DNA of 32,000 nt from Bellilinea caldifistulae (GTDB lineage: Bacteria; Chloroflexota; Anaerolineae; Anaerolineales; Anaerolineaceae), in assembly GCF_001306055.1 (NCBI RefSeq), contig NZ_LGHJ01000009.1, positions 60,001 through 92,000 of the forward strand, written 5' to 3'. A model generated the notes under the pieces. That model was not told the DNA's origin, made no database searches, and saw nothing but the letters and a program-made list of their open reading frames with translations. The position numbers were made by a program, and so were the translations under genes. Below, piece by piece: positions 13,831 to 31,234 of this stretch (position 1 is the stretch's first letter; every line of letters begins with the position of its first letter).

Positions 13831-13840
13831 GGCGGCAGCC

Positions 13841-15574
13841 ATGGAGAGTTTACCGGTTATTTCGGTTTCACGCGGCATCAGCATTGCACCCATCTTCCAA
13901 TTTCGCAACACGCCGCTGGTCTACGAACGCCGCCTGATTGAAAATCCCTTGGTAGAGTGGGAACGCTATCGTCAGGCCGTGCAGGAAAGCTTGAATCGCC
14001 TGGAACAGATTTACCACCAGGCGGTTGCTGAGGTCGGGACGGATGAAGCGGGCATTTTTCACGCCCACATTTCCATTTTGCAAGACCCAGACCTGAATGA
14101 CAGCGTAAAAGACCGTATCTACGGCGAAAAGATCAATGCCGAAAGTGCGCTATATGAGGTCAGTGAAGAGTATTGCCGCATGTTGGAAGAGATCAACGAT
14201 GAGTACATCCGCGCCCGTACCACCGACCTGCGCGATGTGCGTGATGGCGTGTTGCGCATTTTACTGCATGTAGATGGTCATCATATTAAACTCACTTCAC
14301 CGGCGATTGTAGTTGCTCGTGAACTGACCCCCTCAGAGTGTCTTTTGTTGGACCGCCGGTTGGTACGTGGCTTTTGCACCATTGAAGGTGGCACCACTTC
14401 TCATACAGCCATTCTCTCGCGCAGTTTGGGCATCCCCGCTGTGGTTGGCATTCCCGAACGCCTTCTAAGCGTCCCAGATGGGATGCTGGCGATCTTGGAT
14501 GGTTATGAAGGCAAAATTATCCTGAAACCCGATCAAGAGACGATCCAGCATTATCAAGGAATGCAGTCTCGCAGGCAGCAAATTTTCGAGACCGCTTTGC
14601 GCGAAACCCACCGCCCGGCTCTGACGCTGGATGGGCACGTGGTTGAAGTATTTGCAAATATTGCCAACGATAATCCCCAAGACCTGAAAGAAGCCGTTCA
14701 AAACGGAGCCGAAGGGGTTGGTTTGCTGCGGACAGAATTCATCTATCTGGACTGCGAAACCCTACCAGACGAAGAAGTTCAATTTTATAAATATAAATCC
14801 GTGCTGGAGGCTTTTGGCAACCGGCCGGTTATCCTGCGTACGCTGGATATTGGCGGCGACAAGCAGCTACCCTACCTTGACCTGCCATATGAACTGAATC
14901 CATTTCTAGGTGTGCGCGGACTGCGATTGTGTCTGCGGAATTTAGCGCTCTTCAAAGCTCAGATTCGAGCCGCATTACGCGCCGCCTCTTACGGGAATCT
15001 GTATCTGATGTTCCCAATGGTCACCAAAGGCGCCGAGATTCAGGCTGCCAAAGCCGTGATTGCCGAATGCCGGGCTGAGCTGGAAGCCGAAGGGTGTAGT
15101 ATTCCTCCCCGTATTCCGATTGGCATAATGATTGAGATTCCCGCCGCTGCCCTGATGGCTCGTCATCTGGCGCGTGAAGTGGACTTCTTCTCGATCGGTA
15201 CCAACGATTTGACCCAGTATACCCTTGCAGTTGACCGCACCAATTCTGCTCTCACCGATCTGGCAAGCGGCTTTGACCCGGCTGTGCTGAACTTGATTCA
15301 GGCGGTGATTAATGGAGCGCATACTCAGGGCAAAAAAACTGGCATCTGTGGCGAATTGGGCGGTGACCCGTTAGCCATTCCACTGCTTGTGGGTATGGGA
15401 ATGGACGAGTTGAGCATGAACGCAGGTGAAATTCCGGCCGCCAAACAAATCATCCGCCAGATTTCGCTGAAGGATGCCCGCCTTGTTAGCCAGCAGGCAC
15501 TGGAACTGGAAACTCCCGAAGAAGTGATCGCCTTGGTTAAATCAGCCTTTCCGTTTATTGAAAACTACATCTGA
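13841..15574 (+). CDS. ptsI: PTS Enzyme I (phosphoenolpyruvate-protein phosphotransferase)
   Basis: 577 aa. The active-site His loop is 'GGTTSHTAILSRSLGIPAVVG', and the PEP-binding TIM-barrel motifs are 'GLLRTEF' and 'FFSIGTNDLTQY'. The start lies 10 nt after ptsH. Confidence 0.92.
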   Translation: MESLPVISVSRGISIAPIFQFRNTPLVYERRLIENPLVEWERYRQAVQESLNRLEQIYHQAVAEVGTDEAGIFHAHISILQDPDLNDSVKDRIYGEKINAESALYEVSEEYCRMLEEINDEYIRARTTDLRDVRDGVLRILLHVDGHHIKLTSPAIVVARELTPSECLLLDRRLVRGFCTIEGGTTSHTAILSRSLGIPAVVGIPERLLSVPDGMLAILDGYEGKIILKPDQETIQHYQGMQSRRQQIFETALRETHRPALTLDGHVVEVFANIANDNPQDLKEAVQNGAEGVGLLRTEFIYLDCETLPDEEVQFYKYKSVLEAFGNRPVILRTLDIGGDKQLPYLDLPYELNPFLGVRGLRLCLRNLALFKAQIRAALRAASYGNLYLMFPMVTKGAEIQAAKAVIAECRAELEAEGCSIPPRIPIGIMIEIPAAALMARHLAREVDFFSIGTNDLTQYTLAVDRTNSALTDLASGFDPAVLNLIQAVINGAHTQGKKTGICGELGGDPLAIPLLVGMGMDELSMNAGEIPAAKQIIRQISLKDARLVSQQALELETPEEVIALVKSAFPFIENYI

Positions 15575-17304: not shown

Positions 17305-17339
17305 TTGTTTTTTGGGAGGGGAGACGGTTATAATATAAC
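17305..17339 (+). promoter_or_regulatory. Promoter and operator of the phd/vapC operon
   Basis: TTGTTT-18 nt-TATAAT, with the -10 at 17329-17334. The -10 lies inside the perfect palindrome GTTATA-A-TATAAC (17327-17339), as expected for antitoxin autoregulation. Confidence 0.45.
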
Positions 17340-17370
17340 TGGTCAGACTAGTTATTTGTGGAGGTGCGCG

Positions 17371-17625
17371 ATGAATCTCTGGCAGTTGCAGGAAGCGAAA
17401 AGCCGCTTCAGTGAACTGGTTGAGCGAACTCTGCGCAACGGCGCGCAGATCGTCACCCGGCGAGGAAAGAAGGTTGTAGTGGTGCTGTCTTACGAGGAAT
17501 ACCGCCGCCTGACTAACCCCCAGCGCAACCTGGCGCAATTTCTGCTCCAATCGCCACTGGCAGGATCGGAACTCAAAATTGAGCGGGATCAAAGCCTGCC
17601 GCGTGAGGTGGATTTACAGCCATGA
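17371..17625 (+). CDS. Type II antitoxin, Phd/YefM family (VapB-role partner of VapC)
   Basis: 'MNLWQLQEAKSRFSELVERTLRNGAQIVTRRGKKVVVVLSYEEYRRL' is a typical Phd/YefM N-terminus. A GGAGG RBS lies 6 nt upstream of the ATG at 17371; the longer track ORF starting at 17305 is rejected. The stop overlaps the vapC start (ATGA). Confidence 0.85.
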   Translation: MNLWQLQEAKSRFSELVERTLRNGAQIVTRRGKKVVVVLSYEEYRRLTNPQRNLAQFLLQSPLAGSELKIERDQSLPREVDLQP

Positions 17626-18047
17626 CTTACCTGCTGGATACCTGCGTCATTTCGGAGTTCACCCGCCGCCAGCCGAACGAGCGAGTGGTGCGCTGGTTGT
17701 CCGAAGCCGATGAAGACACACTTTATCTGAGTGTCCTTTCGATTGGTGAGATTCAACATGGGATTGAGCGGTTGGAAAATTCACCACGCAAAGAAGATTT
17801 GCGTCACTGGCTGGAAAATGATTTGATCCTGCGTTTCGATAAACGCATATTGCCGTTGGACGTCCCTACCCTCTTGGTGTGGGGAGAACTGATTGGCAAG
17901 CTGGAGCGGGAAGGACGAAAACTGCCTGCTTTCGATGGGTTGATTGCCGCCACAGCGCTGGCTCACGACCTGGCGATTGTCACCCGAAACACGGTGGATT
18001 TTGAGCCTGCCGGTGTCCGAGTGTTCAATCCGTGGGAGGAAGGATAA
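17622..18047 (+). CDS. vapC: PIN-domain ribonuclease toxin VapC
   Basis: 141 aa. 'MTYLLDTCVISE' carries the first PIN Asp, and later acidic residues lie in '...EIQHGIE...' and 'TRNTVDFE'. There is a 4-nt overlap with the antitoxin gene. Confidence 0.88.
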   Translation: MTYLLDTCVISEFTRRQPNERVVRWLSEADEDTLYLSVLSIGEIQHGIERLENSPRKEDLRHWLENDLILRFDKRILPLDVPTLLVWGELIGKLEREGRKLPAFDGLIAATALAHDLAIVTRNTVDFEPAGVRVFNPWEEG

Positions 18048-18862
18048 ACCCCATAGACGAGTATCTTGCAACCCTCACCAGTCCCCGCACGGCAGAGCGT
18101 TACCGGGCGGCACTGAGCGAATTTGCCGACTGGTACACCCAAACCACCGGCGCAAGCGTGGACTGGAACCTGCTCACCACCGTTGAGGTCAAGGACTACA
18201 CCGCCTACTTGCAAACCGTCCGCAGGCTCTCACCGGCGAGCGTCAATCTGCGGTTGGCAGCCCTCCGTTCGTTCCTGCGCCACCTGGGGCGCACCTTGAA
18301 GGTGAAAGGCCCCAAGCAGGTCACCCCGCCGGTCAAGGCTCTCTCTGACCGTGAGTTGGGCAGGCTGTTGGCTGCCGCCGAAGGCAGTACACGGGATACC
18401 GCCATCCTCAACCTGCTGGCACGGACAGGCTTGCGGGTGGGTGAGGTAGTCCACCTGCGGGTGGGTGATGTCGAAATGAACGGGCGATCAGGGTGGCTGA
18501 CGGTAAGAGGCGGCAAGGGCAACAAGACCCGCCATGTACCGCTGAACGGCGAGGTGCGTCAGGCGTTGAAAGCCTGGCTGGACGAACGCCCCCAGGGAGC
18601 AGGCGATGACCTGTTCCTCTCCCGCACGGGTAAGCCGCTATCGGAGCGGGATGTCCAGCGCATGGTGGCGGAGTATGCCCGAATCGCCGCTGTCGAAGCC
18701 ACTCCGCACACCTTGCGCCACACCTTTGCCACCCGTGCCATCGAGAAGGGTGTGGATGTGGCCACTCTTGCGGCGATTTTGGGACATTCCCGGTTGGAGA
18801 CGACCGGGCGCTATCTGCACCCGACCGCCGAGCGAATACAGGAGGCGGTGGAGGGAATATGA
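18032..18862 (+). CDS. Tyrosine recombinase/integrase, small XerC/XerD-like; the only intact copy in the window
   Basis: The catalytic signature is complete: 'ARTGLRVGEV' (Arg I), 'HTLRHTFAT' (His-x-x-Arg II) and 'LGHSRLETTGRYLH' (His and Tyr nucleophile). The only in-frame start is the GTG at 18032, which overlaps the last 16 nt of vapC. Both ATG codons used in copy A read ATA here. Confidence 0.85.
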   Translation: MGGRINPIDEYLATLTSPRTAERYRAALSEFADWYTQTTGASVDWNLLTTVEVKDYTAYLQTVRRLSPASVNLRLAALRSFLRHLGRTLKVKGPKQVTPPVKALSDRELGRLLAAAEGSTRDTAILNLLARTGLRVGEVVHLRVGDVEMNGRSGWLTVRGGKGNKTRHVPLNGEVRQALKAWLDERPQGAGDDLFLSRTGKPLSERDVQRMVAEYARIAAVEATPHTLRHTFATRAIEKGVDVATLAAILGHSRLETTGRYLHPTAERIQEAVEGI

Positions 18863-18872
18863 ATTTTTCGGT

Positions 18873-19184
18873 TCAAACGGCAGTAGGGGCGCTGCGGCGT
18901 GGCCTGACCTCTCGCTCCAGACGTTCTCCCAAATGATCCAAAGCCACGTCCAGGTCGTATTCGGCTTGCAGCCCCATCCAGAATTGGGGTGAGACACCAA
19001 AGTAACGCCCCAGCCGCAGAGCGGTATCGGCAGTGATGCTGCGTTCTCCCAGCACGATTTCATTGATGCGGCGCGGGTCCACACCGATCTCAATGGCCAA
19101 ACGGTGCTGGCTCAAATTCATTGGCTTGAGGAACTCTTCCAGAAGAACCTCGCCGGGATGAATGGGGGGTAATTTTTCGGTCAT
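18873..19184 (-). CDS. higA: HigA-family antitoxin (XRE-type HTH)
   Basis: 'IHPGEVLLEEFLKPMNLSQHRLAIEIGVDPRRINEIVLGERSITADTALRLGRYFGVSPQFWMGLQAEYDL' is the canonical HigA sequence pattern. The gene lies downstream of higB. Confidence 0.9.
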   Translation of the reverse strand: MTEKLPPIHPGEVLLEEFLKPMNLSQHRLAIEIGVDPRRINEIVLGERSITADTALRLGRYFGVSPQFWMGLQAEYDLDVALDHLGERLEREVRPRRSAPTAV

Positions 19185-19195
19185 GGTCGTCCTCT

Positions 19196-19480
19196 CTATC
19201 GGTGATAATCCACGATTTCAACCTGATAAGCGTGATCTTCCTGCCAGACAAAACAAATGCGCCACTGATCGTTGATGCGAATGCTCCATTGCCCATCGCG
19301 ATCACCACTGAGTTTTTCCAGACGGTTGCCGGGAGGCACGCGCAAATCATTCAAAGAAGTGGCATTGTTCAGCATACGCAATTTTCGCAGCGCAACTTGT
19401 TGGATCTCCGCAGGCAGCTTACGGGAAGGCTCGCGGTGATAAACCTTGCGCGTTTCTTCGTCGTTGAAGCTCTTGATCAC
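19196..19480 (-). CDS. higB: HigB toxin (RelE/ParE superfamily, 'plasmid maintenance system killer')
   Basis: 'MIKSFNDEETRKVY...LRMLNNATSLNDLRVPPGNRLEKLSGDRDGQWSIRINDQWRICFVW' is the canonical HigB pattern. The start is GTG, and the toxin-first order is typical of higBA. Confidence 0.9.
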   Translation of the reverse strand: MIKSFNDEETRKVYHREPSRKLPAEIQQVALRKLRMLNNATSLNDLRVPPGNRLEKLSGDRDGQWSIRINDQWRICFVWQEDHAYQVEIVDYHR

Positions 19481-19783: not shown

Positions 19784-20057
19784 GGCAGGGCAGTATGAAC
19801 AGGCGTCCCTCTATCCTGAGGGATGTGTACGGGAAGCGGAACTGGCCGATCCGGGTCAGACGGTCATCCACTTTGGCAAGATGAAAGACAAAAAGATTGC
19901 TGAGGTCTGGAAGACCGGCCCTGCCGGTCAGGGATGGGTGCGCTGGGCTGCAAGCACGGATGGCAAGGGCTATGACCCACAAGGCAAGCCCGAAGGCATC
20001 CACTTGCAGCGCATGGCGCGGGCATTCCTCAGCCTGCAATCCGCCTATGCGGGCTAA
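19782..20057 (+). CDS. Small hypothetical protein (~91 aa) with a weak DUF3820-like 'FGK-K-K...W' motif
   Basis: The in-frame TTG at 19782 follows the leader hairpin directly. The C-terminal part reads 'VIHFGKMKDKKIAEVWKTGPAGQGWVRWAASTDGKGYDPQGKPEGIHLQRMARAFL'. A clean intrinsic terminator follows the stop. The start codon and family assignment are uncertain, and the track ORF start at 19605 is not credible. Confidence 0.4.
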   Translation: MAGQYEQASLYPEGCVREAELADPGQTVIHFGKMKDKKIAEVWKTGPAGQGWVRWAASTDGKGYDPQGKPEGIHLQRMARAFLSLQSAYAG

Positions 20058-20071
20058 CCCCTGCGGGAACA

Positions 20072-20104
20072 GAGCCGGACTACCCAGTCCGGCTCGTTCT
20101 TTAT
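20072..20104 (+). terminator. Rho-independent terminator
   Basis: 9-bp stem GAGCCGGAC / GTCCGGCTC with a 6-nt loop, followed by GTTCTTTAT. It starts 15 nt after the stop of the small ORF. Confidence 0.6.
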
Positions 20105-20124
20105 CCTGCGTAGCGCGTTGGGAC

Positions 20125-20307
20125 GGCAAAGCTCTGCCCAGAGCGACCGCAGCAAACGTAGAGATGCTTTTCACGTCCCGCTGCGGTGGGGCGTTGACCG
20201 TTTCCGCGATGCACCGGCGGCTGGCCACGCCGGGGGATCAGGTAGGGTTGTCCGGTCTCTCAGCCCACGTCCTGCGGCACACTATTGCCAAGAATCTGAT
20301 GGACGCG
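20125..20307 (+). pseudogene. Tyrosine-recombinase C-terminal fragment (box II region only)
   Basis: The frame of track ORF 19897..20469 reads 'MLFTSRCGGALTVSAMHRRLATPGDQVGLSGLSAHVLRHTIAKNLMDA', i.e. the 'lF.s..G..ls...v......aGl....H.LRHT.A' pattern. There is no N-terminal domain, and the terminal His/Tyr motif is missing. Confidence 0.55.
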
Positions 20308-20449
20308 GTCGTTGGTGATGATTTGCTCGTCCAGCCGGTCAGCGCGTGCAGGGAGTTGCTCGCTGAACAGGCGCAGGCTGCCGTAGGTGGCAAGGAAGGA
20401 CAGCCACAATGGGCGGAAGCGGTCATCAAGGGCGGAAGGTGGGCTATTT

Positions 20450-22318
20450 TTACTCATTACGTCGGGTAGATTTGCCCTGGCTGTCGCAAGTCCAGAATTC
20501 TAATTGCTCCACAGATGCACCTTGTAATATTTTTGCAAAGTCGCCTTGCAAGTTGCCTTGCTTTGAATCTAAAACATACAGTTTCGATTTAGCCCGCGAA
20601 AGGGCAACATAAGCCAGGCGCTTGTGCAGGTCAGGCGCAGATTGACTTTTTCGAATACTATCCAAGTCAATCACAATCGCGGTATCAAACTCTAGTCCTT
20701 TGCTGCTGTAAAAGGTAGTCAGCAAAATTTGGGATTTTTGTTTGCCGAACGAGTGTAGAGCCTTGTTTTGTAATCGTTCCTTTGTAGAAACCGCTGCCAT
20801 CAATTTTTCAAATTCTTCAACGTCATCAGGGCGAAGTCTTCTGTATTCCTCTAACCTAGAACTTGTCAATACTGCCTGACAGAGTTGTTCTAACCAATCT
20901 TTGAGCAGCATTTCGCCGTTTCGAAGTGTCCAGAGTGCATGAAACAGTTCCCGTTCTATTTCAAGCCGTTTCGCGTTATCGCTTTCTCCCTCTAATTGAC
21001 AAAAGCTATTCCAAAACGGCAGTAAGTCGTAGAAATAGACTTCATCACCCGAACACCATTGTGCCACTTTTTCGAGCCATTCGATTAACTCGGTATTCGA
21101 GCCATAATCAGGATCTTTGTCAGGTCTCAAATCCATACCAAGACGCTCTAATTCTGGCAACAAATCCTCAATACTTTTTACTTTTTGTGATTTTCTTCTT
21201 TGTGACATCAGTACTGCTATATGCTTATCATTTCCCTGCTCCATTAAGATTTGGGAGACTGATTGGGGGTATGGACAGTCTTTGATTTGAATGTAATGAA
21301 TTTCGGCAAGGTGCTTTTGATTAGATTGATATGGGGTTGGGCTATCCAATACCAGATTGCTGAACTCAATCAAATTCTGCGAAGAACGATAATTTTTCTG
21401 CAAGGTAATTGGATGATTTTGACAAAGTCGTTCTACTGTATCAGATAATTCGTGGATAGTTTCCGGTTTGCTACCCTGCAAGTCTTCGTAAATACATTGA
21501 TTGGGGTCGCCAATCGCAAAGACGGATATAAGTTGTTGCTCTACAAGGTGCATGACCATCTGGTGAAACAACGGGCTGAGGTCCTGGAATTCATCCACGA
21601 ACCACCAGGGGTAGCGCGCCGTAAGCGTTCTTGCCAGTGCAGGCTTCGTTTTGAGGATGTGTAAAGCAAGCATTTCGATTTGAACGAAATCCATGCCATG
21701 GACTTGTCGCTCAAGGTAAGCATGATAATCGCCCGCTAATTGCGACCAGTCTAAACCCTGTAAAGCTCTTTGGCTGTAGTCACTTACTTTTGCGAGAGAG
21801 TTGCTGGAAAAATCCTTCTTCTCTGGTTGAAAACACCTGCGTCGGAACTTGTCCAAATCGCTCTCTATGTCTCTTATTGCCCCGTCTTTTTTGGGAAGTG
21901 ATTTCCCCTGTTTTTGTAATGCCTGGGATAAGGCATCTTTTCTTTCTTTTTCGGAAGCAATCCGAAACGGTTCTGGAATGCTCCCCGGTGGTAGCAAGTT
22001 AACTGCTGGCAGAATGATTTCTGCAATGCAAAAAGCGTGAATCGTGCCAACATACATGCGCTCAGAGTCATACACGCCCAACTCGCGCAACTCTTTGACC
22101 AACTTTTCGGCCAACTGCCGCGAAAACGTAATACAGGCAATTTTCTGCGGATAGCGCACTTTCTCTTCCAAAAGCGCCTTCGCCATTTTCATCGTTAGCA
22201 AATACGTCTTGCCTGACCCCGGTCCTGCAATGACAACTTGGCTGCCTTCCGAATAGAAAGCGGCGCGCTGGTTGTTGTCTTGCTCTATTTTGCCAAGTCG
22301 TTTCAGGTATTCAGACAT
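20450..22318 (-). CDS. gajB: SF1 UvrD/Rep/PcrA-like helicase, GajB-like partner of the OLD nuclease
   Basis: 622 aa. Motifs seen are Q-motif 'QRAAFYSEG', motif I 'AGPGSGKTYLL', motif II 'WWFVDEFQDLSP', motif III 'GDPNQCIY', motif IV 'NYRSSQNLIEFSN', motif V 'YSSKGLEFDTAIV' and motif VI 'LAYVALSRAKSKLYV'. The start lies 3 nt after the upstream gene's stop. Confidence 0.8.
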   Translation of the reverse strand: MSEYLKRLGKIEQDNNQRAAFYSEGSQVVIAGPGSGKTYLLTMKMAKALLEEKVRYPQKIACITFSRQLAEKLVKELRELGVYDSERMYVGTIHAFCIAEIILPAVNLLPPGSIPEPFRIASEKERKDALSQALQKQGKSLPKKDGAIRDIESDLDKFRRRCFQPEKKDFSSNSLAKVSDYSQRALQGLDWSQLAGDYHAYLERQVHGMDFVQIEMLALHILKTKPALARTLTARYPWWFVDEFQDLSPLFHQMVMHLVEQQLISVFAIGDPNQCIYEDLQGSKPETIHELSDTVERLCQNHPITLQKNYRSSQNLIEFSNLVLDSPTPYQSNQKHLAEIHYIQIKDCPYPQSVSQILMEQGNDKHIAVLMSQRRKSQKVKSIEDLLPELERLGMDLRPDKDPDYGSNTELIEWLEKVAQWCSGDEVYFYDLLPFWNSFCQLEGESDNAKRLEIERELFHALWTLRNGEMLLKDWLEQLCQAVLTSSRLEEYRRLRPDDVEEFEKLMAAVSTKERLQNKALHSFGKQKSQILLTTFYSSKGLEFDTAIVIDLDSIRKSQSAPDLHKRLAYVALSRAKSKLYVLDSKQGNLQGDFAKILQGASVEQLEFWTCDSQGKSTRRNE

Positions 22319-22321
22319 AGG

Positions 22322-24175
22322 TTAGAAGGAAATCTCGTCTTTAGGGTTTTGGGGCCTTTCTACCGATTCCGGCGGTAATTGCAGGTCGGTGGAAGGTTGG
22401 GGCATTTTCGCCAAAAGGTATTTGATGGCTTTCTCGATGTAAGGAGGCACGCGGTCAGCATCTACTTTTTCTGCCAGGCGTTGGGCAAAACGCCCTTTGC
22501 CCATGCCGGTTGTCTGAATACGATCAATAATCGCTTTAAAATCATTATTGGCAATTTCTTCTTCCAAGTTTTTCACTTGCCTGTCGCTGGCGCCGAGTTC
22601 TTGGTAAACCTCGCACAATTCATCTCCATACCCTGCCTGTATCAATTCCCCCTCAAGCGTGCGCTGATTAACGAAAATACCAACTTCTTCCAAACCGGTT
22701 TTAACAGCACCCCATTCTTTTTTGTTAAAACGAACTTCTATTTCTGCGTGCTTTGGCGCGTTTATTTTTTGCACCAATTCCAGTCCACGTTTTAGCCCAG
22801 GGTTTTGAGTGTCAGGATCTCCATCGGTCAAAACTGCAAATGGAATATCTAACCCTGATAGAAACTCAACATAAGGTCGGAAATCCGTGCCATACACATT
22901 GCACACGCTGATTCCTGCCCCGTCCAGGGTGTGAGATATTTTTCCAGCCTCTTTCATTTTCCTTGCAAACGCAGGGATTAAGAACATCTCGGCGTCGCCC
23001 TCAACCAGTAAGACGCCGCGCGCAAAGACCATTTCTCCGCGTGTAGCATCCAGATAGCGGCTGATATCCTGGCGCATCTTTTCATCTTTTTGAGCGAAAT
23101 TCGCCGTTGAGCGAGCTGCTGTGCCATTAGAAGTGCGTTTCAACACAACAAAATGACGCGGGTCGGCGATACTGACGATGGTCGGAGAATGGGTTGAGGT
23201 GAGCAAAAGATGCTCTTGCTTGAATACGTTTTCAAAAACCAGCCGTTGAAAATGCGGGTGCAGGTGAGATTCAGGCTCTTCGATAGCGAGCAAGACGTAT
23301 TCGGGCTTTTGGTCACCTTTGACAGGCATAGTGCGCAGACGTTTGGCATAAATCAGCCAGGTTATCAGGTATAGAATATTTGAGATGCCCAGACTGCTGC
23401 GCTCAAGCGGTAAATCCGACTCTGCAAAAATGTTGAGCAGTCGCAATAAATCTTCGGGATTCGAACCGGCAATGTTGATGGTTGGTTGAATAGATTGCCC
23501 TTCGACCAGAGTCCCTAGAAAATCGCTAATGTCTTTTTGTAAATCTTGAATGTATGGGATTTGCCCCAGTTTTTTGGATGCGTTTTGAACGCTCTGGGCG
23601 ACCAATTTGAAGTTCGCGTCATTGGTCAGGGAAATCATTTCAACCAAACGGCGCAGCGGCGAAGTACGCCAGCTTTGCATATCGCGTTCCATGTCACGCA
23701 CTGCCGGTATCACGACCAGGCGCACATATTGGCGAAGCCGTTTTGCTCCCTCTGTATTGTTCTCGTTACCACCACAGTATCGAATAAATTCGTAATCATC
23801 TTCGGTTATTGCATTTTGGGGATTCGTATCCTTCTTGGGGCGGTAAATGGCAGATATTTGATACGTACCGTTGTCTTTTCCATGACAATCATGGAAAGAC
23901 GGCAGTAAATCCTGTTCATTTTCCCAGTCGAGCCCTGAAAACCAGGCATGAATTTCGATTGTTCGTCCCCCAAATGGCTTTTTGCCGCTGCCCCGTGAGA
24001 AATCACTTTCTCCCAACGATGGGCGATAGTTCGAGTCCAGCAGGATTCGCAAGGCTTCAATGAAGTTGCTCTTACCGGCACCGTTTTCGCCTAACAGCAC
24101 AATTTTTTCGCCGAATTCAACGGTAACATCTTCCAGATTGCGGAAGTTTTTGATGCAAACTTTTGATAAGTACAT
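22322..24175 (-). CDS. gajA: OLD-family ATP-dependent nuclease (ABC/AAA_15 ATPase plus TOPRIM), GajA-like
   Basis: 617 aa. The N-terminus 'MYLSKVCIKNFRNLEDV...LLGENGAGKSNFIEAL' carries the Walker A motif. 'LLAIEEPESHLHPHFQ' gives the Walker B/H-loop. The TOPRIM domain shows 'VLLVEGDAEMFLIP' (Glu) and 'FAVLTDGDPD' (DxD). A GAGG RBS lies 6 nt upstream. Confidence 0.8.
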   Translation of the reverse strand: MYLSKVCIKNFRNLEDVTVEFGEKIVLLGENGAGKSNFIEALRILLDSNYRPSLGESDFSRGSGKKPFGGRTIEIHAWFSGLDWENEQDLLPSFHDCHGKDNGTYQISAIYRPKKDTNPQNAITEDDYEFIRYCGGNENNTEGAKRLRQYVRLVVIPAVRDMERDMQSWRTSPLRRLVEMISLTNDANFKLVAQSVQNASKKLGQIPYIQDLQKDISDFLGTLVEGQSIQPTINIAGSNPEDLLRLLNIFAESDLPLERSSLGISNILYLITWLIYAKRLRTMPVKGDQKPEYVLLAIEEPESHLHPHFQRLVFENVFKQEHLLLTSTHSPTIVSIADPRHFVVLKRTSNGTAARSTANFAQKDEKMRQDISRYLDATRGEMVFARGVLLVEGDAEMFLIPAFARKMKEAGKISHTLDGAGISVCNVYGTDFRPYVEFLSGLDIPFAVLTDGDPDTQNPGLKRGLELVQKINAPKHAEIEVRFNKKEWGAVKTGLEEVGIFVNQRTLEGELIQAGYGDELCEVYQELGASDRQVKNLEEEIANNDFKAIIDRIQTTGMGKGRFAQRLAEKVDADRVPPYIEKAIKYLLAKMPQPSTDLQLPPESVERPQNPKDEISF

Positions 24176-24192: not shown

Positions 24193-25431
24193 CTACAACT
24201 CCCCCCGGAACGCCGCCGCTAAGATGGACTGCTCCAACTGCTCGATGGCGTGCAGGTCAGCTTCGATCAACTTCTGCGCTTCCTGCACCTCTTGCTGGAT
24301 GCTCTCCAGATAAGCGACGATGCGCCGCTGCTCAGCCAGTGAACGGTCATGATCATGTAGGTAAGGTAAAGGGACAAACAAGTTTTTTATTACTACCTGG
24401 CTGATGTTGGGTTGTGCTCCCCCAAAACTTTGCACAATTATCAAGTTGCGGGCAAATCGTAAATACCAAAATAAAAATTTGTTTAGTATATGTTCTGGTG
24501 TAAAAATAGCACAAATAGCCTGATTAGTTGCGGCTTTGATACCCAAAATACCTAGTTTTCCAACGGTTGCGCCATACATAGCCATCAAAAGAGTGCCTTC
24601 AGGGAAGATTTTAGCGTTAGAATTTTCTAATCCCTGCTCTGTTATCGTTTCTTCACTTGACGTAATTATGCCGTCATTCAATTCGCCAGATTTCACCCAG
24701 GGTATCGAGCCACCAAAATAATCAGAGGTACTTCTTCTGGGAGTTCCGCCACTTGTTGTTTTACATTCATCCCCTAATCTTTTCCACTGCCACCCCTCCG
24801 GCATTGGCTGTTCCTGAGAGGGGAACACCTCCGCCAGGGCTGATTCCATCAGGCGGTTGATGTCTTGCTGCATGGTCTCGACCTGCTGGCGCATGGCTTT
24901 GACTTCCCCCAGCAGGGCTTCCAGCCGCGCCACTATGCGCCGCTGCTCTTCCGGTGGGGGTAATGGTAATGTAATTTTTTTTATCGTTTTTTGATTGATC
25001 GTTTTACCTTTTACCGCCTGTGAAGCTTCTGTTTCGAGCGGAACAACCTGTAGTACCCAAAAAAGATATTCTGGAATAACATTGTTACGATATTCCTCCT
25101 TGATTTCAAGAGATGCAATAGCCTCGTTTGTAAACAAGTCTTTTCCTGCAAAGGCTAATTTCCCGATGGTAAGTTTAAAACTCATGAGTAATGTTCCTTT
25201 TCTTACTAAACGTACTTTACCATCGGCTATAGCTTTATCAGTCACAGTTCGTTGAGACTCTGTTACAACTCGAGAATTCATATCTGATATTGAAATCCAA
25301 GTGTGAGTCCCCCCCCAATACTCTGACCTTTTAGTAGGGGGAGTACTGCCAATTTGAATGTTACAAATAGATCCTAATGAAGTTATCTCCCATTCGGAAT
25401 TCCATTTTTCTCGCGGTAAACGCTGTTCCAT
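24193..25431 (-). CDS. hsdS: Type I R-M specificity subunit HsdS (two TRDs plus two conserved helical regions)
   Basis: The start is reassigned to the ATG at 25431 (MEQRLPREKWNSEWEI...), 2 nt after the hsdM stop. The two conserved regions are 'EEQRRIVARLEALLGEVKAMRQQVE' and 'AEQRRIVAYLESIQQEVQEAQKLIE'. The C-terminal 'ILAAAFRGEL' is typical of HsdS. Confidence 0.88.
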   Translation of the reverse strand: MEQRLPREKWNSEWEITSLGSICNIQIGSTPPTKRSEYWGGTHTWISISDMNSRVVTESQRTVTDKAIADGKVRLVRKGTLLMSFKLTIGKLAFAGKDLFTNEAIASLEIKEEYRNNVIPEYLFWVLQVVPLETEASQAVKGKTINQKTIKKITLPLPPPEEQRRIVARLEALLGEVKAMRQQVETMQQDINRLMESALAEVFPSQEQPMPEGWQWKRLGDECKTTSGGTPRRSTSDYFGGSIPWVKSGELNDGIITSSEETITEQGLENSNAKIFPEGTLLMAMYGATVGKLGILGIKAATNQAICAIFTPEHILNKFLFWYLRFARNLIIVQSFGGAQPNISQVVIKNLFVPLPYLHDHDRSLAEQRRIVAYLESIQQEVQEAQKLIEADLHAIEQLEQSILAAAFRGEL

Positions 25432-25433
25432 CA

Positions 25434-27161
25434 CTACTCCTCCCCGTTGCTGACCATCTGGTGCAGGCGCTCCAGCAGGGCAGCCAGTTCGCGCTGGCGC
25501 TCCAGCAAACTGGCGGTGATCTCCGCCGGGCGGGGCAGGGCAACCCGTTCGCTCTGGTGCGGGTTGCGGGCGCTCAGGTCGTAACCGCGGGCGCGCAGAT
25601 CGTCCAGGCGTTCCACCCAGCAGGTATATGGCGGGGCTGGGCGCGGGCCCTGCGCCTCGAAGGCGCGCCGGTAATCCGGGCTGGCATCGGGTGGGCAAAG
25701 CGGGGGATCGGCTTGTTCCCCTCTTTCCAGTTTCTCGCGGTAAGCCTGCCAGTCCCAATGAGCCTGCCACTGATCGCGAATCTCACCGGCAAAGGCAAAG
25801 GGGCGCTCGCGCTTACCCTGAAGGTAGGCTTTCCATTCCTGCCAGAGGGCGCGGGCTTCGTCAAAATGCTGGTCGGCAATCGGGCTGCCCTTGCTGAACT
25901 TCTTCAGCCCTTCGGGCAGGGGCAGTTCGTAGTACCACACTTCATCGCGCGCCAGCGGATTCTTTTCCAGAATGCGATCCACCCGCTGGAAGAAGAGCAG
26001 AGCGGTCTTGACGTCCGAATAAGGCGAAAAGACGCCCGGCGGCAAACTCACCACCGCAAAAAGGTGAAAATCGTCCAGAAGAATTTTCTTGACCTCGGCA
26101 AACGCCCCGCCGCGGAAGAGCGTGCCTTCCGGCACAACCATTGCGGCGCGGGCGTTGGGGGTGTTTTTGAGTTTCTTCAGAACGTGCTGTAAAAAAAGCA
26201 GTTCGGTGGCATTGCTCTGGATGTTAAAATTGTTTTGAATGTGGGCGCCTTCCTTGCCGCCAAAAGGCGGGTTGGTGAGGATGATATCGAAGCGCTCGCT
26301 GACGCTGGTTTTGACATCTTCTTCCAGCGTGTTGCGCCGGTAAATGTTGGGGGCGGTTACGCCGTGCAGCACCAGATTCATCGTACCCAGCAAGGCAGCC
26401 AGGCCCTTCTTCTCCTGCCCGTAAAAGGTGCTCTGCTGGAGGGTTTCCTCCTGTTCCACCGTGCGCACCTGTTTTTCCATGTGCAGGTAAGCCTGCGCCA
26501 GAAAACCCGCCGAACCGCAAGCCGGGTCATAAACTGTCTCGCCGATTTGGGGGTCAATCACCTCAACCATGAAGCGAATCACCGGGCGGGGAGTGTGGAA
26601 CTCGCCGGCGATCTGGTTTTCCTGCCCCATGCGCGCCAGCAGGTCTTCATAAAAGCGGGTAATGGTGAAGAAATCATCCTCGCGTTGAAAATCAATCCGG
26701 TTAATAATGTCAATAACCTCTTTGAGGTTGTAATCCGAAGCGCAGACCGGCACATTGCGCACCACCGTTTGATCGCCGACACTCTCATCCGAAAAGAGTT
26801 TGGCAACCGTGTTCGCCAGCGGCGAGCCGGAAAGCGAAGCCAGTCCGGGCAGTAAACGTCCGCGCACAAAAGCCACCAGTTCACCGCGGCTGGAATTCCA
26901 CTTTTCGAGCGCTTCCGGGCTTGCCCAGGCGTCCCAGGCCAGGTCGCCCTGCAAAACCGGGGTGTAGGATTGGCCGCGGAATGCGGCTTCTTCGGCGCGT
27001 TTCTTTTCTTCCAGGTCGAGAAATTTGAGGAAGAGCAGCCAGGCAATGTGCTCGGTGTAGGCCATTACCCCGCCCACATTGTTGTCGCGCCGCAGAATAT
27101 CGCAGGCACGCCACATCTCATTACTCAGGTTTTCGTTGATGGGTCGAGTGGCGATGTTCAT
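25434..27161 (-). CDS. hsdM: Type I R-M N6-adenine DNA methyltransferase HsdM
   Basis: An HsdM_N-like N-terminus is present. The SAM motif is 'VYDPACGSAGFL' and the catalytic motif is 'ILTNPPFGGKEG'. The C-terminal 'CWVERLDDLRARGYDLSARNP' tail is typical. Confidence 0.92.
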   Translation of the reverse strand: MNIATRPINENLSNEMWRACDILRRDNNVGGVMAYTEHIAWLLFLKFLDLEEKKRAEEAAFRGQSYTPVLQGDLAWDAWASPEALEKWNSSRGELVAFVRGRLLPGLASLSGSPLANTVAKLFSDESVGDQTVVRNVPVCASDYNLKEVIDIINRIDFQREDDFFTITRFYEDLLARMGQENQIAGEFHTPRPVIRFMVEVIDPQIGETVYDPACGSAGFLAQAYLHMEKQVRTVEQEETLQQSTFYGQEKKGLAALLGTMNLVLHGVTAPNIYRRNTLEEDVKTSVSERFDIILTNPPFGGKEGAHIQNNFNIQSNATELLFLQHVLKKLKNTPNARAAMVVPEGTLFRGGAFAEVKKILLDDFHLFAVVSLPPGVFSPYSDVKTALLFFQRVDRILEKNPLARDEVWYYELPLPEGLKKFSKGSPIADQHFDEARALWQEWKAYLQGKRERPFAFAGEIRDQWQAHWDWQAYREKLERGEQADPPLCPPDASPDYRRAFEAQGPRPAPPYTCWVERLDDLRARGYDLSARNPHQSERVALPRPAEITASLLERQRELAALLERLHQMVSNGEE

Positions 27162-29851
27162 TCTAAATACAGTCTCCGTTGCAGTTCACTGATGGTTTCG
27201 CGCAAAGCCTCAACGCTGCCAAAGCGTTTGGCAACGCCTCTTAACTCCCCCATGGATCGGAATGGCGGCAAACGATAGACGAGCGGATCGGTCAACTGGC
27301 GCAGGCCTCCCTCGCCGTATTTTTCCAGCAGCGTTTCAATCACCACACGGCGCTCTGGGGGAAAGGCGGCCAGCCAGCCGTTTTGTTTTCGCAAAAACTG
27401 CTGCACGCGCTGGCGGCGGGTGGGGATGGGTTGCCGCTGGAAAGCCACATAACCGATCACATCCAGCGGGTCGGCATCCTGGACTTTCAGCACCTCAGCC
27501 AGCACATCGGCGTGAACATTTTCACGTTCCAACTGCTGTTGTACCTCATCGCGGCTGGTTTGCTCCTGCCATTTTGCCAGCATGGCTTGCCAGTCTGGCG
27601 CAATGGCCATAATGCGCTGGCGGGAGTAGTCAATGTACTGTTCAAGGGTAAGCGGTTCGTCCAGCCCGGCGACAACAAAGGTGGCTTCCTCAGCGATGGT
27701 CACTTCGAGGTTGCGAACCGTAATTACTTTGACTTCGTCCTCGCGGACAGGTTTTAATTCGATGTCCACCGTGACGGTTTGATAAGCCTGCGTTTGCACC
27801 TTGATTTGGCGGCGATTGAGTCTGAGCCCATAGGCAATCAGGGTCACTTCACCGGCAGGCAGATAGTCGAATCGGAAAGCGCCGTTTTGATCCGTGAGGA
27901 TCGGCCCGCGCTGGTCGTTCGGGGCGGCCATCACTGCCACGCTGGCGCCGACAATGACCTCTCCGCTTTCGGCCAGACGCACCGTGCCGGAAATACTCGC
28001 GGTCTGCTCCCGGAGGGGAACGGGCTGGTCAATGGGTGTGGGCGGACAGTCCCAGGTTTTATCCAGCAGGCGGGTGGCATTGGTGTAGTCAATGATGCGG
28101 AACCAGTACTTGCCGGTAACCGGGTCAACACGGCTGCCGCGCCCGATGATCTGCTTGAAGAGGATGGGGGATTGGATGGTTTTCATGAAGACAATGTTAC
28201 GGCAGGATGGTACATCCACTCCCGTGGAGAGCAGTTCAGCGGTCACCGCAACCACCGGGAACTTGCGGTCACTATCCTGAAAATTCGCCAGCCAGCGGTG
28301 GGCTTGTTCGCCCTCTTCGCTGACGATGGGGACGGCATAATCTTCGTCATAACCGAGGTCGGCAAATTCGTTGTTCAACAGGCGGGCAACTTCCTGCGCG
28401 TGATCCATATCCACACAAAAGACCATTGTCTTGTGGGTGGGGCCGAACTCACGCAGCAGCCTTGCCAGATGGCGCACTAAAGTTTGTGTACGGTCGGGCA
28501 AGCGGATTTCACGCTCGAATTGGGGAGTGAAATACTCCTCCCGAACGTCAGCATCTTCGGGCGCGATGACTTCGGCGCCCTGTTCGATGACTTCGGAAAT
28601 GTGCAGTCCATCGCGGTCTATGTTGGTGCGGACACGATGAACTTTGTAGGTTGCCAGAAAGCCGTCTTCGATGCCCTGTGCAAGACTGTATGAGTAAGCG
28701 GGCGGATGAATGCTGCCCTTTTCCGGGTGGTGAGGATCAAGCGGAATGGCCGGTTCTTCGGAGCAAAAGTAGGCGTAGGTATCCACATTTTCATCTTGTT
28801 TGGGGGTAGCCGTCATACCCAGGTGGATGGCGGATTCGAAGTGGTCAAGAATTTCTTTCCACGTGCCAAATCCCGAACGGTGCGCCTCATCAATAATCAC
28901 GACATCAAAGAAATCCCGAGGAAACTTTTCAAACAACCGCTTCCCCTTTTCGTCCTGGCTCCACAGGGTCTGGTAAATCCCGAAGTAGAGATCATGCTGC
29001 AGGCTCAGACGGTTGGGGTTGTCAATCATGTGGCGCGGATCGCCATGGCTGCCAGCAAAAGGACTGAAAGCATTGTAAGCCTGATTGCGTAACACAACCC
29101 GGTCAGCCAGAAAAAGCACGCGTCCGGTGCGGCCTCGATTTTGAAACAGCCACTCCGATTTGATCAGCTTCCAGACAATTTGCATGGCAGTGAAGGTTTT
29201 GCCCGTTCCAGTTGCCATGGTCAGTAGAATCCGCTTTTGCCCGCGCATGATGCGAACCAGAACCTCGCGAATGGCGACTTCCTGAAAGTAGCGGGGCATG
29301 CTCCCGCGCGTGGCTTCGGGCGGTGCGTAGGGGTGAAGAATGGGGTTGTGGGCACGGGCACGCGCCAGTGCGGCGTTGTAAACCGGGCGCAATTCCCTCG
29401 TCTGGTGAACCTCTTCCTCAATGTTCAAGCCGGTGTTGAGTTTCCAGCGATTCCACAGTTCATCCGGCGAGGGGAACTCCGCGATTTCGCGGGTGGTATT
29501 GGTAAAACCGTCCCATTCGATGATTTGATGCCCGTTGGTGGCATAGGCAAACATCAAGTGATTATCGCGGGCGTATTGTTTGGCCTGCTCTAAGCCAAGC
29601 GCAGCGGGTTCGGCTTCAGCTTTGGCTTCCACCACTGCAATGGGGAAGGCGTCGGTATAGCGCAGAAGATAATCTACCCGGCGGGGTTTTTCCCGCTCAA
29701 CTTTTCCCCCGCGCAGGATAATTCGTCCGGGCGCATACTCCCAATCCTTACGGTAATAAAATTCACGAGTAACCTGGCTTTGAGTCCAGCCAGCGCGGTT
29801 GAGTTGGGGGTCAATCAGTTGTGCTCGCGTGTCGGATTCGTTAAGGGGCAT
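27158..29851 (-). CDS. hsdR: Type I restriction enzyme R subunit HsdR (PD-(D/E)xK nuclease, SF2 DEAH motor, inserted beta-sandwich, EcoEI_R_C-like tail)
   Basis: 897 aa. The N-terminus reads 'NESDTRAQLIDPQLNRAGW' and the nuclease motif is 'DYLL...AVVEAKAE'. The Walker A motif is 'TMATGTGKTFTA'. Further helicase motifs are 'VIIDEAHRSG', 'MTATP' and 'QIIGRGSR'. The C-terminal ~190 aa resemble the EcoEI R C-terminal domain. There is a 4-nt overlap with hsdM. Confidence 0.92.
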   Translation of the reverse strand: MPLNESDTRAQLIDPQLNRAGWTQSQVTREFYYRKDWEYAPGRIILRGGKVEREKPRRVDYLLRYTDAFPIAVVEAKAEAEPAALGLEQAKQYARDNHLMFAYATNGHQIIEWDGFTNTTREIAEFPSPDELWNRWKLNTGLNIEEEVHQTRELRPVYNAALARARAHNPILHPYAPPEATRGSMPRYFQEVAIREVLVRIMRGQKRILLTMATGTGKTFTAMQIVWKLIKSEWLFQNRGRTGRVLFLADRVVLRNQAYNAFSPFAGSHGDPRHMIDNPNRLSLQHDLYFGIYQTLWSQDEKGKRLFEKFPRDFFDVVIIDEAHRSGFGTWKEILDHFESAIHLGMTATPKQDENVDTYAYFCSEEPAIPLDPHHPEKGSIHPPAYSYSLAQGIEDGFLATYKVHRVRTNIDRDGLHISEVIEQGAEVIAPEDADVREEYFTPQFEREIRLPDRTQTLVRHLARLLREFGPTHKTMVFCVDMDHAQEVARLLNNEFADLGYDEDYAVPIVSEEGEQAHRWLANFQDSDRKFPVVAVTAELLSTGVDVPSCRNIVFMKTIQSPILFKQIIGRGSRVDPVTGKYWFRIIDYTNATRLLDKTWDCPPTPIDQPVPLREQTASISGTVRLAESGEVIVGASVAVMAAPNDQRGPILTDQNGAFRFDYLPAGEVTLIAYGLRLNRRQIKVQTQAYQTVTVDIELKPVREDEVKVITVRNLEVTIAEEATFVVAGLDEPLTLEQYIDYSRQRIMAIAPDWQAMLAKWQEQTSRDEVQQQLERENVHADVLAEVLKVQDADPLDVIGYVAFQRQPIPTRRQRVQQFLRKQNGWLAAFPPERRVVIETLLEKYGEGGLRQLTDPLVYRLPPFRSMGELRGVAKRFGSVEALRETISELQRRLYLE

Positions 29852-30371: not shown

Positions 30372-31234
30372 ATGAGCCCACAAAACACCATCTGTATCAA
30401 AGATGCCCTCGAGGAATTCCTCCTTTCACGTCAGGCGATGCGCTGTTCCTCAAAAACCCTTCGAACATACCAAAGCATCTTGGGACGATTTACCCAATGG
30501 TTAGAAAAAGAGGGGGTTCAAACGGCAAACCAAATGACTTCCCGGCATGTTCGCAGATTTATGTCTCAAATTTCGGGTACTCAATGGCTTTAAATGGTTA
30601 TGGCCGTGCTATTAGGACTTTCATAAATTTCCTGAGTCAAGAAGAACTGGTTGATCATAAAATCTATATAAAAGTCCCACCATCGCCCAGGTAAAACCTT
30701 CCTTTTTTGAATTCCTCTCAAATCACACAATTATTGGAAGTTTGTGATGTCCAAGAAAAAACGATTGTTCTCTTGATCGTGGATAGCGGTTCAAGGCGAC
30801 AAGAAGTTTGCAACTTGAAAATCGGAGATGTACAAATTGAAAACGGAATGATTCGTGTTGTTCTGAGCAAGGGAAATAAGGACAGGATAGTGTTTATTGG
30901 TCAGGCTACGATCAATGCAATTTTAGATTATTTACCCGATTTCAATTATCGGGACAAAGAAAGTCCCCTTTTCAAAACCAAAAACGGCAAGCCTTTCAAC
31001 GGAGACCGTATGCAAAAAATGTTTCTCCGTCTTTCAAAACAATCGGGAATCAAAGTTACTCCTCACATGCTACGACGGTCATTTGCAACATTATCTTTGA
31101 AATTTGGAATGGACATGGTCAGCCTTCAAATGCTGATGGGGCATGCCAGCATAGAGACAACCCGCAGATACATTCAGTTATTAAGTGACGACCTTCAGAA
31201 TGCACAAAAAATGCAAGCCCCGTTGATCGGTTAA
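30372..31234 (+). pseudogene. Tyrosine recombinase pseudogene with one frameshift and one in-frame stop
   Basis: The protein is spread over three pieces. The N-terminal SAM-like domain (30372..30593) reads 'CSSKTLRTYQSILGRFTQWLEKEGV...HVRRFM'. It continues in the next frame as 'ALNGYGRAIRTFINFL' up to a TAA at 30692-30694. The catalytic domain (30707..31234) carries 'DSGSRRQEV', 'HMLRRSFATL' and 'MGHASIETTRRYIQ'. The gene is AT-rich, unlike the other integrases. Confidence 0.8.

Follow-up and report, generated by a model that had tools for sequence, protein, structure and literature searches.

Evidence for a canonical Gabija gene pair in Bellilinea caldifistulae, probably at the tail of a Type I restriction-modification operon

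Two described systems are closest to the gene pair reported here. One is the Gabija system of Bacillus cereus VD045 (8sm3, 8j4t, 8jq9, 8iud), whose GajB subunit is the basis of all mechanistic work on the helicase; the active-site reference for BcGajA is E379 together with a DxD motif (PMC10781630), and BcGajB was reported to be without the N-terminal Q motif region (PMC10681800). The other comprises the class 2 OLD nucleases that Schiltz et al. 2019 described from Burkholderia pseudomallei and from Xanthomonas campestris (6nk8, 6njv), with seven catalytic residues listed for BpOLD (PMC6755086). A prediction made from the letters of the DNA had pointed to a Gabija-like pair in a stretch of 32,000 nucleotides from Bellilinea caldifistulae (contig NZ_LGHJ01000009.1, positions 60,001 to 92,000), here called the window, and this locus was followed up computationally (Table 1). 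We consider it very likely that the pair is a canonical Gabija system on the chromosome, consisting of a class 2 OLD GajA and a UvrD/PcrA/Rep-like GajB, probably at the tail of an hsdRMS operon in a defence island rich in integrase and toxin-antitoxin genes.

Table 1. Genes and elements of the window, with the basis of each assignment
Feature	Coordinates	Strand	Basis
Phd/VapC toxin-antitoxin pair	17305-18047	+	NCBIfam phd_fam above cutoff; VapC below cutoff
XerC/D-like integrase, intact	18032-18862	+	Pfam Phage_integrase E=1.7e-40
HigA/HigB-like pair	18873-19480	-	NCBIfam HigA above cutoff; YoeB-like match below cutoff
Island context block as a whole	17305..19480		
Tyrosine-recombinase remnant, 63% GC	19897..20469	+	Weak Phage_integrase match below cutoff; abuts gajB 3' end
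Small ORF, 65 aa, annotated BECAL_00792 (hypothetical)	20260..20457	-	ATG overlaps gajB stop
gajB, UvrD/PcrA/Rep-like SF1A helicase/NTPase, 622 aa	20450..22318	-	PADLOC, Pfam, PDB, AF2/Foldseek
gajA, class 2 OLD-family nuclease, 617 aa	22322..24175	-	PADLOC, Pfam, PDB matches
hsdS, Type I R-M specificity subunit, 412 aa	24193..25431	-	Pfam Methylase_S x2; PADLOC Specificity_I E=4e-81
hsdM, Type I R-M N6-adenine methyltransferase	25434..27161	-	PADLOC MTase_I E=1.2e-129; Pfam N6_Mtase, HsdM_N
hsdR, Type I restriction subunit, 897 aa	27158..29851	-	PADLOC REase_I E=8.6e-136

Both open reading frames and the motifs quoted for them are real, as are the 3 nt that separate the stop codon of gajA from the ATG of gajB. 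GajA joins, on one polypeptide, an N-terminal ABC-type ATPase half to a TOPRIM plus helical domain at the C-terminus, and its Pfam domains AAA_15 (E=6.3e-31) and OLD-like_TOPRIM (E=1.3e-17) each score above cutoff. The PADLOC profile for GajA (PDLC00070) is matched at E=2.7e-178, residues 1-591 covering positions 1-595 of 596. Walker A extends from G29 to S36 with K35 as its lysine (GENGAGKSN, 29-37), the Walker B/D-loop LLAIEEPE occupies residues 295-302, with IEEPESHLHPHFQ inside 295-310, and H329 follows. The TOPRIM motifs are LLVEGDAEMF (389-398) and LTDGDPD (449-455). The residues E392, E396, D451, D453, T506, E508 and K560 align with E400, E404, D455, D457, T506, E508 and K562 of BpOLD, all seven being identical, and BcGajA E379 and D432/D434 fall on E392 and D451/D453; the acidic TOPRIM residues of the characterised proteins, the Glu and the DxD, are conserved. 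By these alignments the two-metal TOPRIM active site is complete, including the second-metal E/T/E ligands and the lysine. In the PDB the best matches, 6nk8 and 6njv, are C-terminal regions of class 2 OLD proteins (E about 1e-36; 2e-36), and BcGajA is matched at E=1.7e-17. A ribosome-binding site (GAGG) lies 8 nt 5' of the gajA ATG.

GajB contains the Pfam domains UvrD-helicase and UvrD_C, matches the PADLOC GajB profile (PDLC00117; E=7.7e-115) with residues 2-589 on positions 5-579 of 604, and finds BcGajB in the PDB at E=2.5e-22. With profile E-values of 1e-178 and 1e-115 the signal of the pair is far beyond chance, and these end-to-end matches, taken with the mapped catalytic residues and the constant pairing of the two genes described below, bear out the Gabija identity. 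The seven UvrD motifs that had been claimed for the helicase could all be located: Q17, AGPGSGKT (31-38), ITFSRQLAEKL (63-73) and VGTIHAFC (90-97) near the N-terminus, WFVDEFQD (239-246), VFAIGDPNQCIY (266-277) and LQKNYRSSQNL (306-316) in the middle, and LLTTFYSSKGLEFD (532-545) and LAYVALSRAKSKLYV (568-582) towards the C-terminus. In an alignment of 56 GajB sequences the invariant columns coincide with the Q motif and motifs I-VI, namely Q17, G34/G36/K37/T38, D242/E243/Q245/D246, G270/D271/Q274, N309/R311, K540 and R575, and the NTPase motifs (Walker A Lys, DExQD box, motifs III-VI) are intact. The monomer was modelled with AF2 at high internal scores (pLDDT 93.1, pTM 0.92), and Foldseek places the model on UvrD, PcrA and Rep with TMq 0.60-0.64 and on BcGajB with TMq 0.32-0.36. 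A housekeeping UvrD, PcrA or Rep helicase was rejected because the NCBIfam equivalogs score far under their cutoffs (PcrA 112 bits against 911, UvrD 96 against 1144, Rep 93 against 951); no model naming GajA or GajB was found in the NCBIfam search. The Q motif region at the N-terminus is present in Bellilinea GajB. Since this region is kept and the model superimposes better on UvrD, PcrA and Rep, details specific to B. cereus GajB may not transfer to this protein, among them an NTPase activity that is not coupled to unwinding. With this pair one of the commonest defence systems gains a Chloroflexota member; DefenseFinder or PADLOC would call it automatically.

The pair had also been described as oversized and possibly as a divergent subtype, relative to prototype lengths of ~580 and ~490 aa. 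These lengths were right (in the PDB, B. cereus GajA has 578 aa and GajB 494 aa), but the conclusion did not hold and was rejected. The PADLOC profiles themselves, with 596 and 604 positions, are similarly long and match end to end, and full-length relatives, down to 24% identity, mostly measure 590-660 aa, so that 622 aa is a normal length and it is the B. cereus protein that is short. The original prediction had also placed over 100 additional residues between motifs IV and V; the spacing N309-K540 is 231 residues against ~204 in BcGajB, a surplus of only ~27 by phmmer coordinates. The spacer between these motifs is the normal 2A/2B region found in all SF1A helicases. An insertion there was discarded on phmmer coordinates and the secondary structure of the model, which put the surplus mainly in 1B, where it is largest (~60 aa within residues 115-216, from motif Ib to motif II). 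Rather than forming a divergent subtype, the pair shares its branch (E=2e-36) with the class 2 OLD nucleases from Burkholderia and Xanthomonas that have been studied biochemically. In this branch GajB has the size of UvrD and a UvrD-like predicted fold, and the trimmed B. cereus GajB is unrepresentative of much of the family.

The pairing itself is strictly kept. In all 12 distinct loci of a small sample biased to long contigs, with GajB identities of 28-100%, gajA and gajB are same-strand neighbours that overlap or lie no more than ~11 nt apart; the Bellilinea genes are intact, and an identical copy occurs in an independent sample. Stand-alone pairs make up half of the sampled loci and include all three of the most distant relatives. 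As it is found with and without R-M neighbours, gajAB is a self-contained cassette. Gabija of this clade is recurrently the last element of Type I R-M operons: directly after the R-M genes, on the same strand, in six of the 12 loci (the window, L002, L003, L005, L006 and L013), with two HsdR families, the HsdR of L006 coming from another one (T1R_D3/T1RH-like_C).

This position at the tail of a Type I R-M operon is the only mildly unusual feature of the pair. Only 17 nt separate the hsdS stop from the gajA ATG, no terminator-like site was found in that interval, and a promoter/terminator scan gave counts no better than in shuffled sequence. Judging from the spacing, gajAB is probably co-transcribed as the tail of hsdR-hsdM-hsdS, with hsdR as first gene of a putative five- or six-gene transcription unit. 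The hsdS start is the ATG at 25431, which has a ribosome-binding site, and in HsdR the Pfam domains ResIII, Helicase_C and EcoEI_R_C are accompanied by CarboxypepD_reg (residues 619-700). Phase variation of hsdS by a shufflon using the nearby integrase was rejected, as the window holds no extra hsdS fragments. Within the window no tRNA gene was found as an island boundary.

Downstream, the gajB stop overlaps the start of a small ORF in AATGAGTAA. Its ~47-aa N-terminal region is conserved and its substitutions are mostly synonymous third-position changes, while the C-terminus is variable, or truncated at the Bellilinea locus. The family has no counterpart in Pfam or PADLOC, and only 6 relatives were found among 5.8 billion proteins; a likeness to the C-terminus of IstB, seen by eye, was dropped because the motif order does not fit. 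The ORF is kept after gajB in L002, L003 and L006, and in L014 it stands directly after hsdS without gajAB. The similarity to relatives ends exactly at the recombinase remnant, whose residues 89-140 resemble the L002 integrase and which marks a rearrangement breakpoint of the island.

With respect to history, the original prediction had estimated ~40% GC for the pair and argued from the contrast with its R-M neighbours that it had arrived by separate horizontal transfer. The measured value is 45.7% (gajA 47.0%, gajB 44.2%), which is the background here (chromosomal flanks 47.5% and 45.4%), whereas hsdM (59.0%) and hsdR (55.9%; together 57.1%) deviate. A compositional newcomer status of gajAB was therefore rejected, and the outliers at this locus are hsdR/hsdM and the integrase/toxin-antitoxin block. 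What stands is that gajAB and hsdRM have different histories. When the same genome pairs are compared, identity is 91-92% in gajA against only 71-73% in hsdR/hsdM, and gajAB keeps 42-48% GC in every host; this discordance in identity (92% against 71%) and GC argues that the cassette moves independently.

That the pair belongs to another OLD/ABC-ATPase defence family and was misread as Gabija, be it PARIS (AriAB), Septu (PtuAB), a retron effector or a class 1 OLD, is extremely improbable. Weak N-terminal ATPase matches do exist, to AriA (E=4.7e-33, confined to residues 1-334), to PtuA (46 bits against a cutoff of 500) and to the effector of retron Eco8, but they cover the ATPase P-loop region only and fall far short of the full-length GajA match (E=2.7e-178). 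Moreover, the TOPRIM domain is fused to the ATPase, unlike in PARIS, and a UvrD-like helicase immediately downstream is the defining class 2 feature (PMC6755086). A role of the nuclease and helicase as a repair or replication module acting on host DNA, a possibility raised for class 2 OLD by Schiltz et al. 2019 (PMC6755086), would agree with the predicted fold of GajB, for which the repair helicases UvrD, PcrA and Rep are the nearest matches. We think that it is very unlikely to be realized here, as the pair sits in a mosaic island of R-M, toxin-antitoxin and integrase genes, is patchily distributed with foreign GC in related genomes, scores ~100 bits against equivalog cutoffs above 900, and belongs to a type of class 2 OLD and helicase pair that is experimentally established as Gabija defence (PMC10781630, PMC12407980).

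The neighbourhood raises the question whether gajAB is functionally coupled to the Type I R-M system as its back-up, being co-transcribed with hsdRMS and either triggered once an Ocr-like anti-restriction DNA mimic of a phage has disabled the R-M enzyme or fed with DNA ends made by HsdR. The shared strand, the short terminator-free interval after hsdS and the recurrence in half of the loci, once with a different HsdR family, are consistent with this. Secondary statements in PMC12255303 and in the preprint by Payne et al. have Ocr activate Gabija, the latter adding that embedded Gabija or PARIS could guard an Ocr-inhibited system, and GajB is reportedly stimulated by DNA termini (10.1101/2023.05.02.539174). 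Against it stand the stand-alone pairs, particularly those of the three most distant relatives, the discordant identities and GC that indicate independent movement, and the small sampling with its long-contig bias; defence genes are also expected to cluster in islands even without functional coupling. Overall we regard the coupling as rather unlikely. If it were functional, the locus would be a simple natural test bed for an anti-restriction protein that triggers a back-up defence. A speculative extension, which we consider improbable, is that in this Anaerolineae clade Gabija forms a fixed hsdR-hsdM-hsdS-gajA-gajB module with the translationally coupled small ORF, a composite system in which Gabija would either stand guard and respond to the blocking of HsdR by anti-restriction proteins, or be triggered by DNA ends that HsdR generates, and the small protein would be an accessory component or regulator.

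Our analysis shows how the domains are arranged, which catalytic residues are present, that the two genes are paired and that their spacing is operon-like; for the canonical Gabija reading, complex formation, nucleotide sensing and anti-phage activity are inferred from the homologous proteins of B. cereus and Burkholderia. By this analogy a GajA tetramer would dock GajB to give a roughly 4:4 complex, in which nucleotide bound at the ABC ATPase domain would hold the TOPRIM nuclease off DNA. Phage replication could act as the trigger, by depleting nucleotides or by exposing DNA ends that host end-processing enzymes leave uncovered. GajA would then nick or cleave DNA by two-metal catalysis, with E392, D451 and D453 at metal A, E396, T506 and E508 at metal B, and K560, and the resulting ends might stimulate GajB to hydrolyze (d)ATP and (d)GTP, which would reinforce the response.

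[quoted passage not shown] They differ in their proteobacterial hosts, whereas the Bellilinea pair belongs to Chloroflexota (Anaerolineae) and follows at the end of Type I R-M genes. With B. cereus VD045 Gabija the pair shares the two-gene architecture, the domain order, the Walker A lysine (K35), the TOPRIM Glu and DxD and the SF1 motifs, and no GIG motif was seen by eye in the 2B region of GajB, which we counted as a further likeness. Owing to low identity the sequence matches to the B. cereus proteins are only local (E=1.7e-17 and 2.5e-22). GajA is longer by 39 aa and GajB by 128 aa (~60 in 1B, ~27 between motifs IV and V, ~10 at the N-terminus with the Q motif, ~14 at the C-terminus), and the fit of the whole GajB model to BcGajB is poor (TMq 0.36; UvrD gives 0.64). 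The arrangement resembles defences inserted into Type I R-M operons or attached to them ("guilt-by-embedding", Payne et al. 2024), such as PrrC, DarTG2 in EPEC and TgvAB in V. cholerae VPI-2, in that a second, mechanistically different module shares hsd strand and spacing and recurs in several genomes. It differs in that gajAB comes after the last hsd gene instead of between hsdS and hsdR; the pair is nonetheless bracketed by the small conserved ORF, which in L014 adjoins hsdS directly.

The two genes are a genuine and intact pair, predicted from their sequence to form a Gabija system of a quite ordinary kind. Both open reading frames are real, encoding proteins of 617 aa (GajA) and 622 aa (GajB) with 3 nt between the genes, and all motifs quoted in the original prediction are found in the two proteins. 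Its assignment as a Gabija pair was borne out by PADLOC, whose GajA profile PDLC00070 matches residues 1-591 of GajA (positions 1-595 of 596, E=2.7e-178) and whose GajB profile PDLC00117 matches residues 2-589 of GajB (positions 5-579 of 604, E=7.7e-115). [quoted passage not shown] The TOPRIM Glu and DxD proposed for checking by alignment are conserved. The class 2 catalytic set of Schiltz et al. (E400, E404, D455, D457, T506, E508, K562; PMC6755086) corresponds in GajA to the identical residues E392, E396, D451, D453, T506, E508 and K560, and E379 and the DxD D432/D434 of the B. cereus prototype BcGajA (PMC10781630) align with E392 and D451/D453.

GajB contains the Pfam domains UvrD-helicase and UvrD_C, and when it is aligned with its relatives (56 sequences) the invariant columns coincide with helicase motifs I-VI plus the Q motif. 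A housekeeping UvrD, PcrA or Rep was considered for GajB and rejected, as the NCBIfam equivalogs score ~100 bits against cutoffs of >900. The pair had been thought oversized and possibly a divergent subtype in comparison with the B. cereus proteins, whose sizes had been given correctly (578 aa for GajA and 494 aa for GajB). However, most full-length relatives (24 to 89% identity) have lengths of 590-660 aa and PADLOC profiles of the same size exist, so the pair is ordinary in size for its branch, and it is the B. cereus proteins that are compact. Nor do more than 100 extra residues lie between helicase motifs IV and V: placed by phmmer coordinates, with reference domain boundaries from PMC10681800, the surplus over BcGajB is only about +27 there (231 aa against about 204 aa), with about +60 in residues 115-216 (1B; 101 aa against 41 aa), about +10 at the N-terminus, adding a UvrD-like Q motif, and about +14 at the C-terminus. 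The AlphaFold2 model of GajB is confident (pLDDT 93.1, pTM 0.92) and superposes with a TMq of 0.60-0.64 on UvrD, PcrA and Rep, compared with 0.32-0.36 on BcGajB. This UvrD-like fit of the model is a caveat against carrying over B. cereus-specific details, and we see in it no evidence for a new subtype. BcGajB itself lacks unwinding activity.

By homology, a GajA tetramer would dock GajB, and the two-metal TOPRIM nuclease of GajA would be kept in check by bound nucleotides. Cleavage would then be licensed by nucleotide depletion in infection or by DNA ends that lack host end-processing enzymes, and hydrolysis of (d)ATP and (d)GTP by GajB, stimulated by DNA ends, would strengthen the response. 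RecBCD loading has been proposed to protect self DNA from Gabija (PMC12407980).

Coordinates of features in the window and in comparison loci (L numbers) from other genomes or contigs
Feature	Locus	Coordinates	Remarks
Toxin-antitoxin/integrase block	window	17305..19480	Phd/VapC and HigBA-like pairs
Intact XerC/D-like integrase	window	18032-18862	63% GC
Recombinase remnant	window	19897..20469	abuts gajB
Small ORF	window	20260..20457(-)	65 codons
gajB	window	20450..22318(-)	
gajA	window	22322..24175(-)	
hsdS	window	24193..25431(-)	
hsdM	window	25434..27161(-)	
hsdR	window	27158..29851(-)	
Split recombinase, N-terminal ORF	window	30372-30593	low GC (40%)
Split recombinase, C-terminal ORF	window	30707-31234	low GC (40%)
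hsdS divergent segment	window	24349..25426	
hsdS divergent segment	L001	4766..5825	
Small ORF	L002	~13675-13932	
Small ORF	L003	~11397-11585	
Small ORF	L006	9805-10092	
Small ORF	L014	989-1354	
227-aa ORF	L002	9149-9832	GC 41.7% (low)
917-aa protein and the genes after it	L002	13921-19963	
Type I R-M operon	L006	960-5928	

Bellilinea grows at temperatures near 55 C. Over its left 16 kb the window carries housekeeping genes (ABC sugar transport, PTS), and a mosaic island spans about 17.3 to 31.2 kb. It begins with the Phd/VapC pair, the intact tyrosine recombinase and the HigBA-like pair, continues with the recombinase remnant and then, on the minus strand throughout, gajB, gajA, hsdS, hsdM and hsdR, and ends with the split recombinase. 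Recombinase debris brackets the island at both sides, with the toxin-antitoxin pairs inside; the intact integrase lies on the same side as the remnant, and the window contains no tRNA gene. The start of gajA follows the hsdS stop by 17 nt and has a GAGG ribosome-binding site, no terminator-like site was found between hsdS and gajA, and co-transcription of gajAB with hsdRMS is likely. HsdR carries a CarboxypepD_reg (carboxypeptidase-regulatory-like) beta-sandwich in residues 619-700 (Pfam E=1.2e-12, above cutoff), with the helicase C-terminal domain on one side of it and EcoEI_R_C on the other. Type I restriction subunits do not usually have such an insertion, which the L001 copy shows as well.

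GajA and GajB are neighbours in all 12 distinct loci examined. In half of these, gajAB comes straight after Type I R-M genes of the same strand (the window with its duplicate L001, L002, L003, L005, L006 and L013), and it stands alone in the other six (L004 and L008-L012), among them all three of the relatives that are most distant. When the window is compared with L002 or L003, the identity is 91-92% for gajA but only 71-73% for hsdR and hsdM, and the GC content of gajAB is 42-48% at every locus while that of its neighbours is 55-63%, so the cassette and the R-M genes have had separate histories. This supports one part of the proposal that the pair arrived by horizontal transfer of its own. 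The compositional part did not hold: instead of the ~40% GC estimated originally, gajA has 47.0% and gajB 44.2% (hsdM 59.0%, hsdR 55.9%), and the pair together (45.7%) is not an outlier in Bellilinea but matches the chromosomal flanks (47.5% and 45.4%). What stands out in GC there is hsdRM (57.1%), together with the integrase/toxin-antitoxin block.

Several loci show further peculiarities. L001, from an independent sample (Logan SRR24079451), is 99.4-99.6% identical to the window over hsdR, hsdM, gajA, gajB and beyond, except in hsdS, where both target-recognition domains are replaced (39% aa identity) and the 125-nt central conserved region is retained; two nearly identical strains have thus recently come to differ by an exchange of Type I specificity. 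L002, a Chloroflexota MAG, has an unannotatable ORF between hsdS and gajA, and the small ORF after its gajB runs into the start of a protein of 917 aa with PLD and ResIII/Helicase_C domains and with PADLOC DrmD-like and 'HKD+Snf2' matches. A protein with PLD and lamin-tail domains and an integrase follow, so that the locus forms a larger defence island, some components of which are possibly novel. In L006, whose GajB is 62% identical to that of the window, the Type I R-M operon ahead of gajAB belongs to a different family, its HsdR having T1R_D3-like and T1RH-like_C domains, with two small genes between hsdS and hsdR, one a weak Rv0078B-like match, and an Mrr-like nuclease lies downstream.

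The small ORF and the stop codon of gajB overlap (AATGAGTAA). The N-terminal ~47 residues of this ORF, reading SSALDDRFRQLWxSFxATYGxLRLFSEQLPxxADRLDEQII, are conserved after gajB in L002, L003 and L006, with variable C-termini. It is probably coding, because substitutions among the copies are mostly synonymous. A search of 5.8 billion proteins found only 6 relatives, and the ORF could be assigned to no family. In L014 it directly follows hsdS without gajAB, and a perfect hairpin (TGCCTGCCGAT-TTA-TCGGCAGGCA) lies ahead of it. It seems to be part of the hsd operon rather than of Gabija, in which case hsdS and the small ORF effectively enclose gajAB.

This small conserved ORF, together with the operonic linkage to Type I R-M that recurs among the loci, is the sole lead that we consider worth pursuing. 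Defence genes inside or joined to Type I R-M operons are already well documented, as for TgvAB (PMC11411939), DarTG2 (PMC12255303) and PrrC, the latter treated with the concept of 'guilt-by-embedding' in the preprint of Payne et al. As that preprint explicitly suggests Ocr as a trigger of embedded Gabija, the linkage of gajAB to the R-M genes fits an existing concept.
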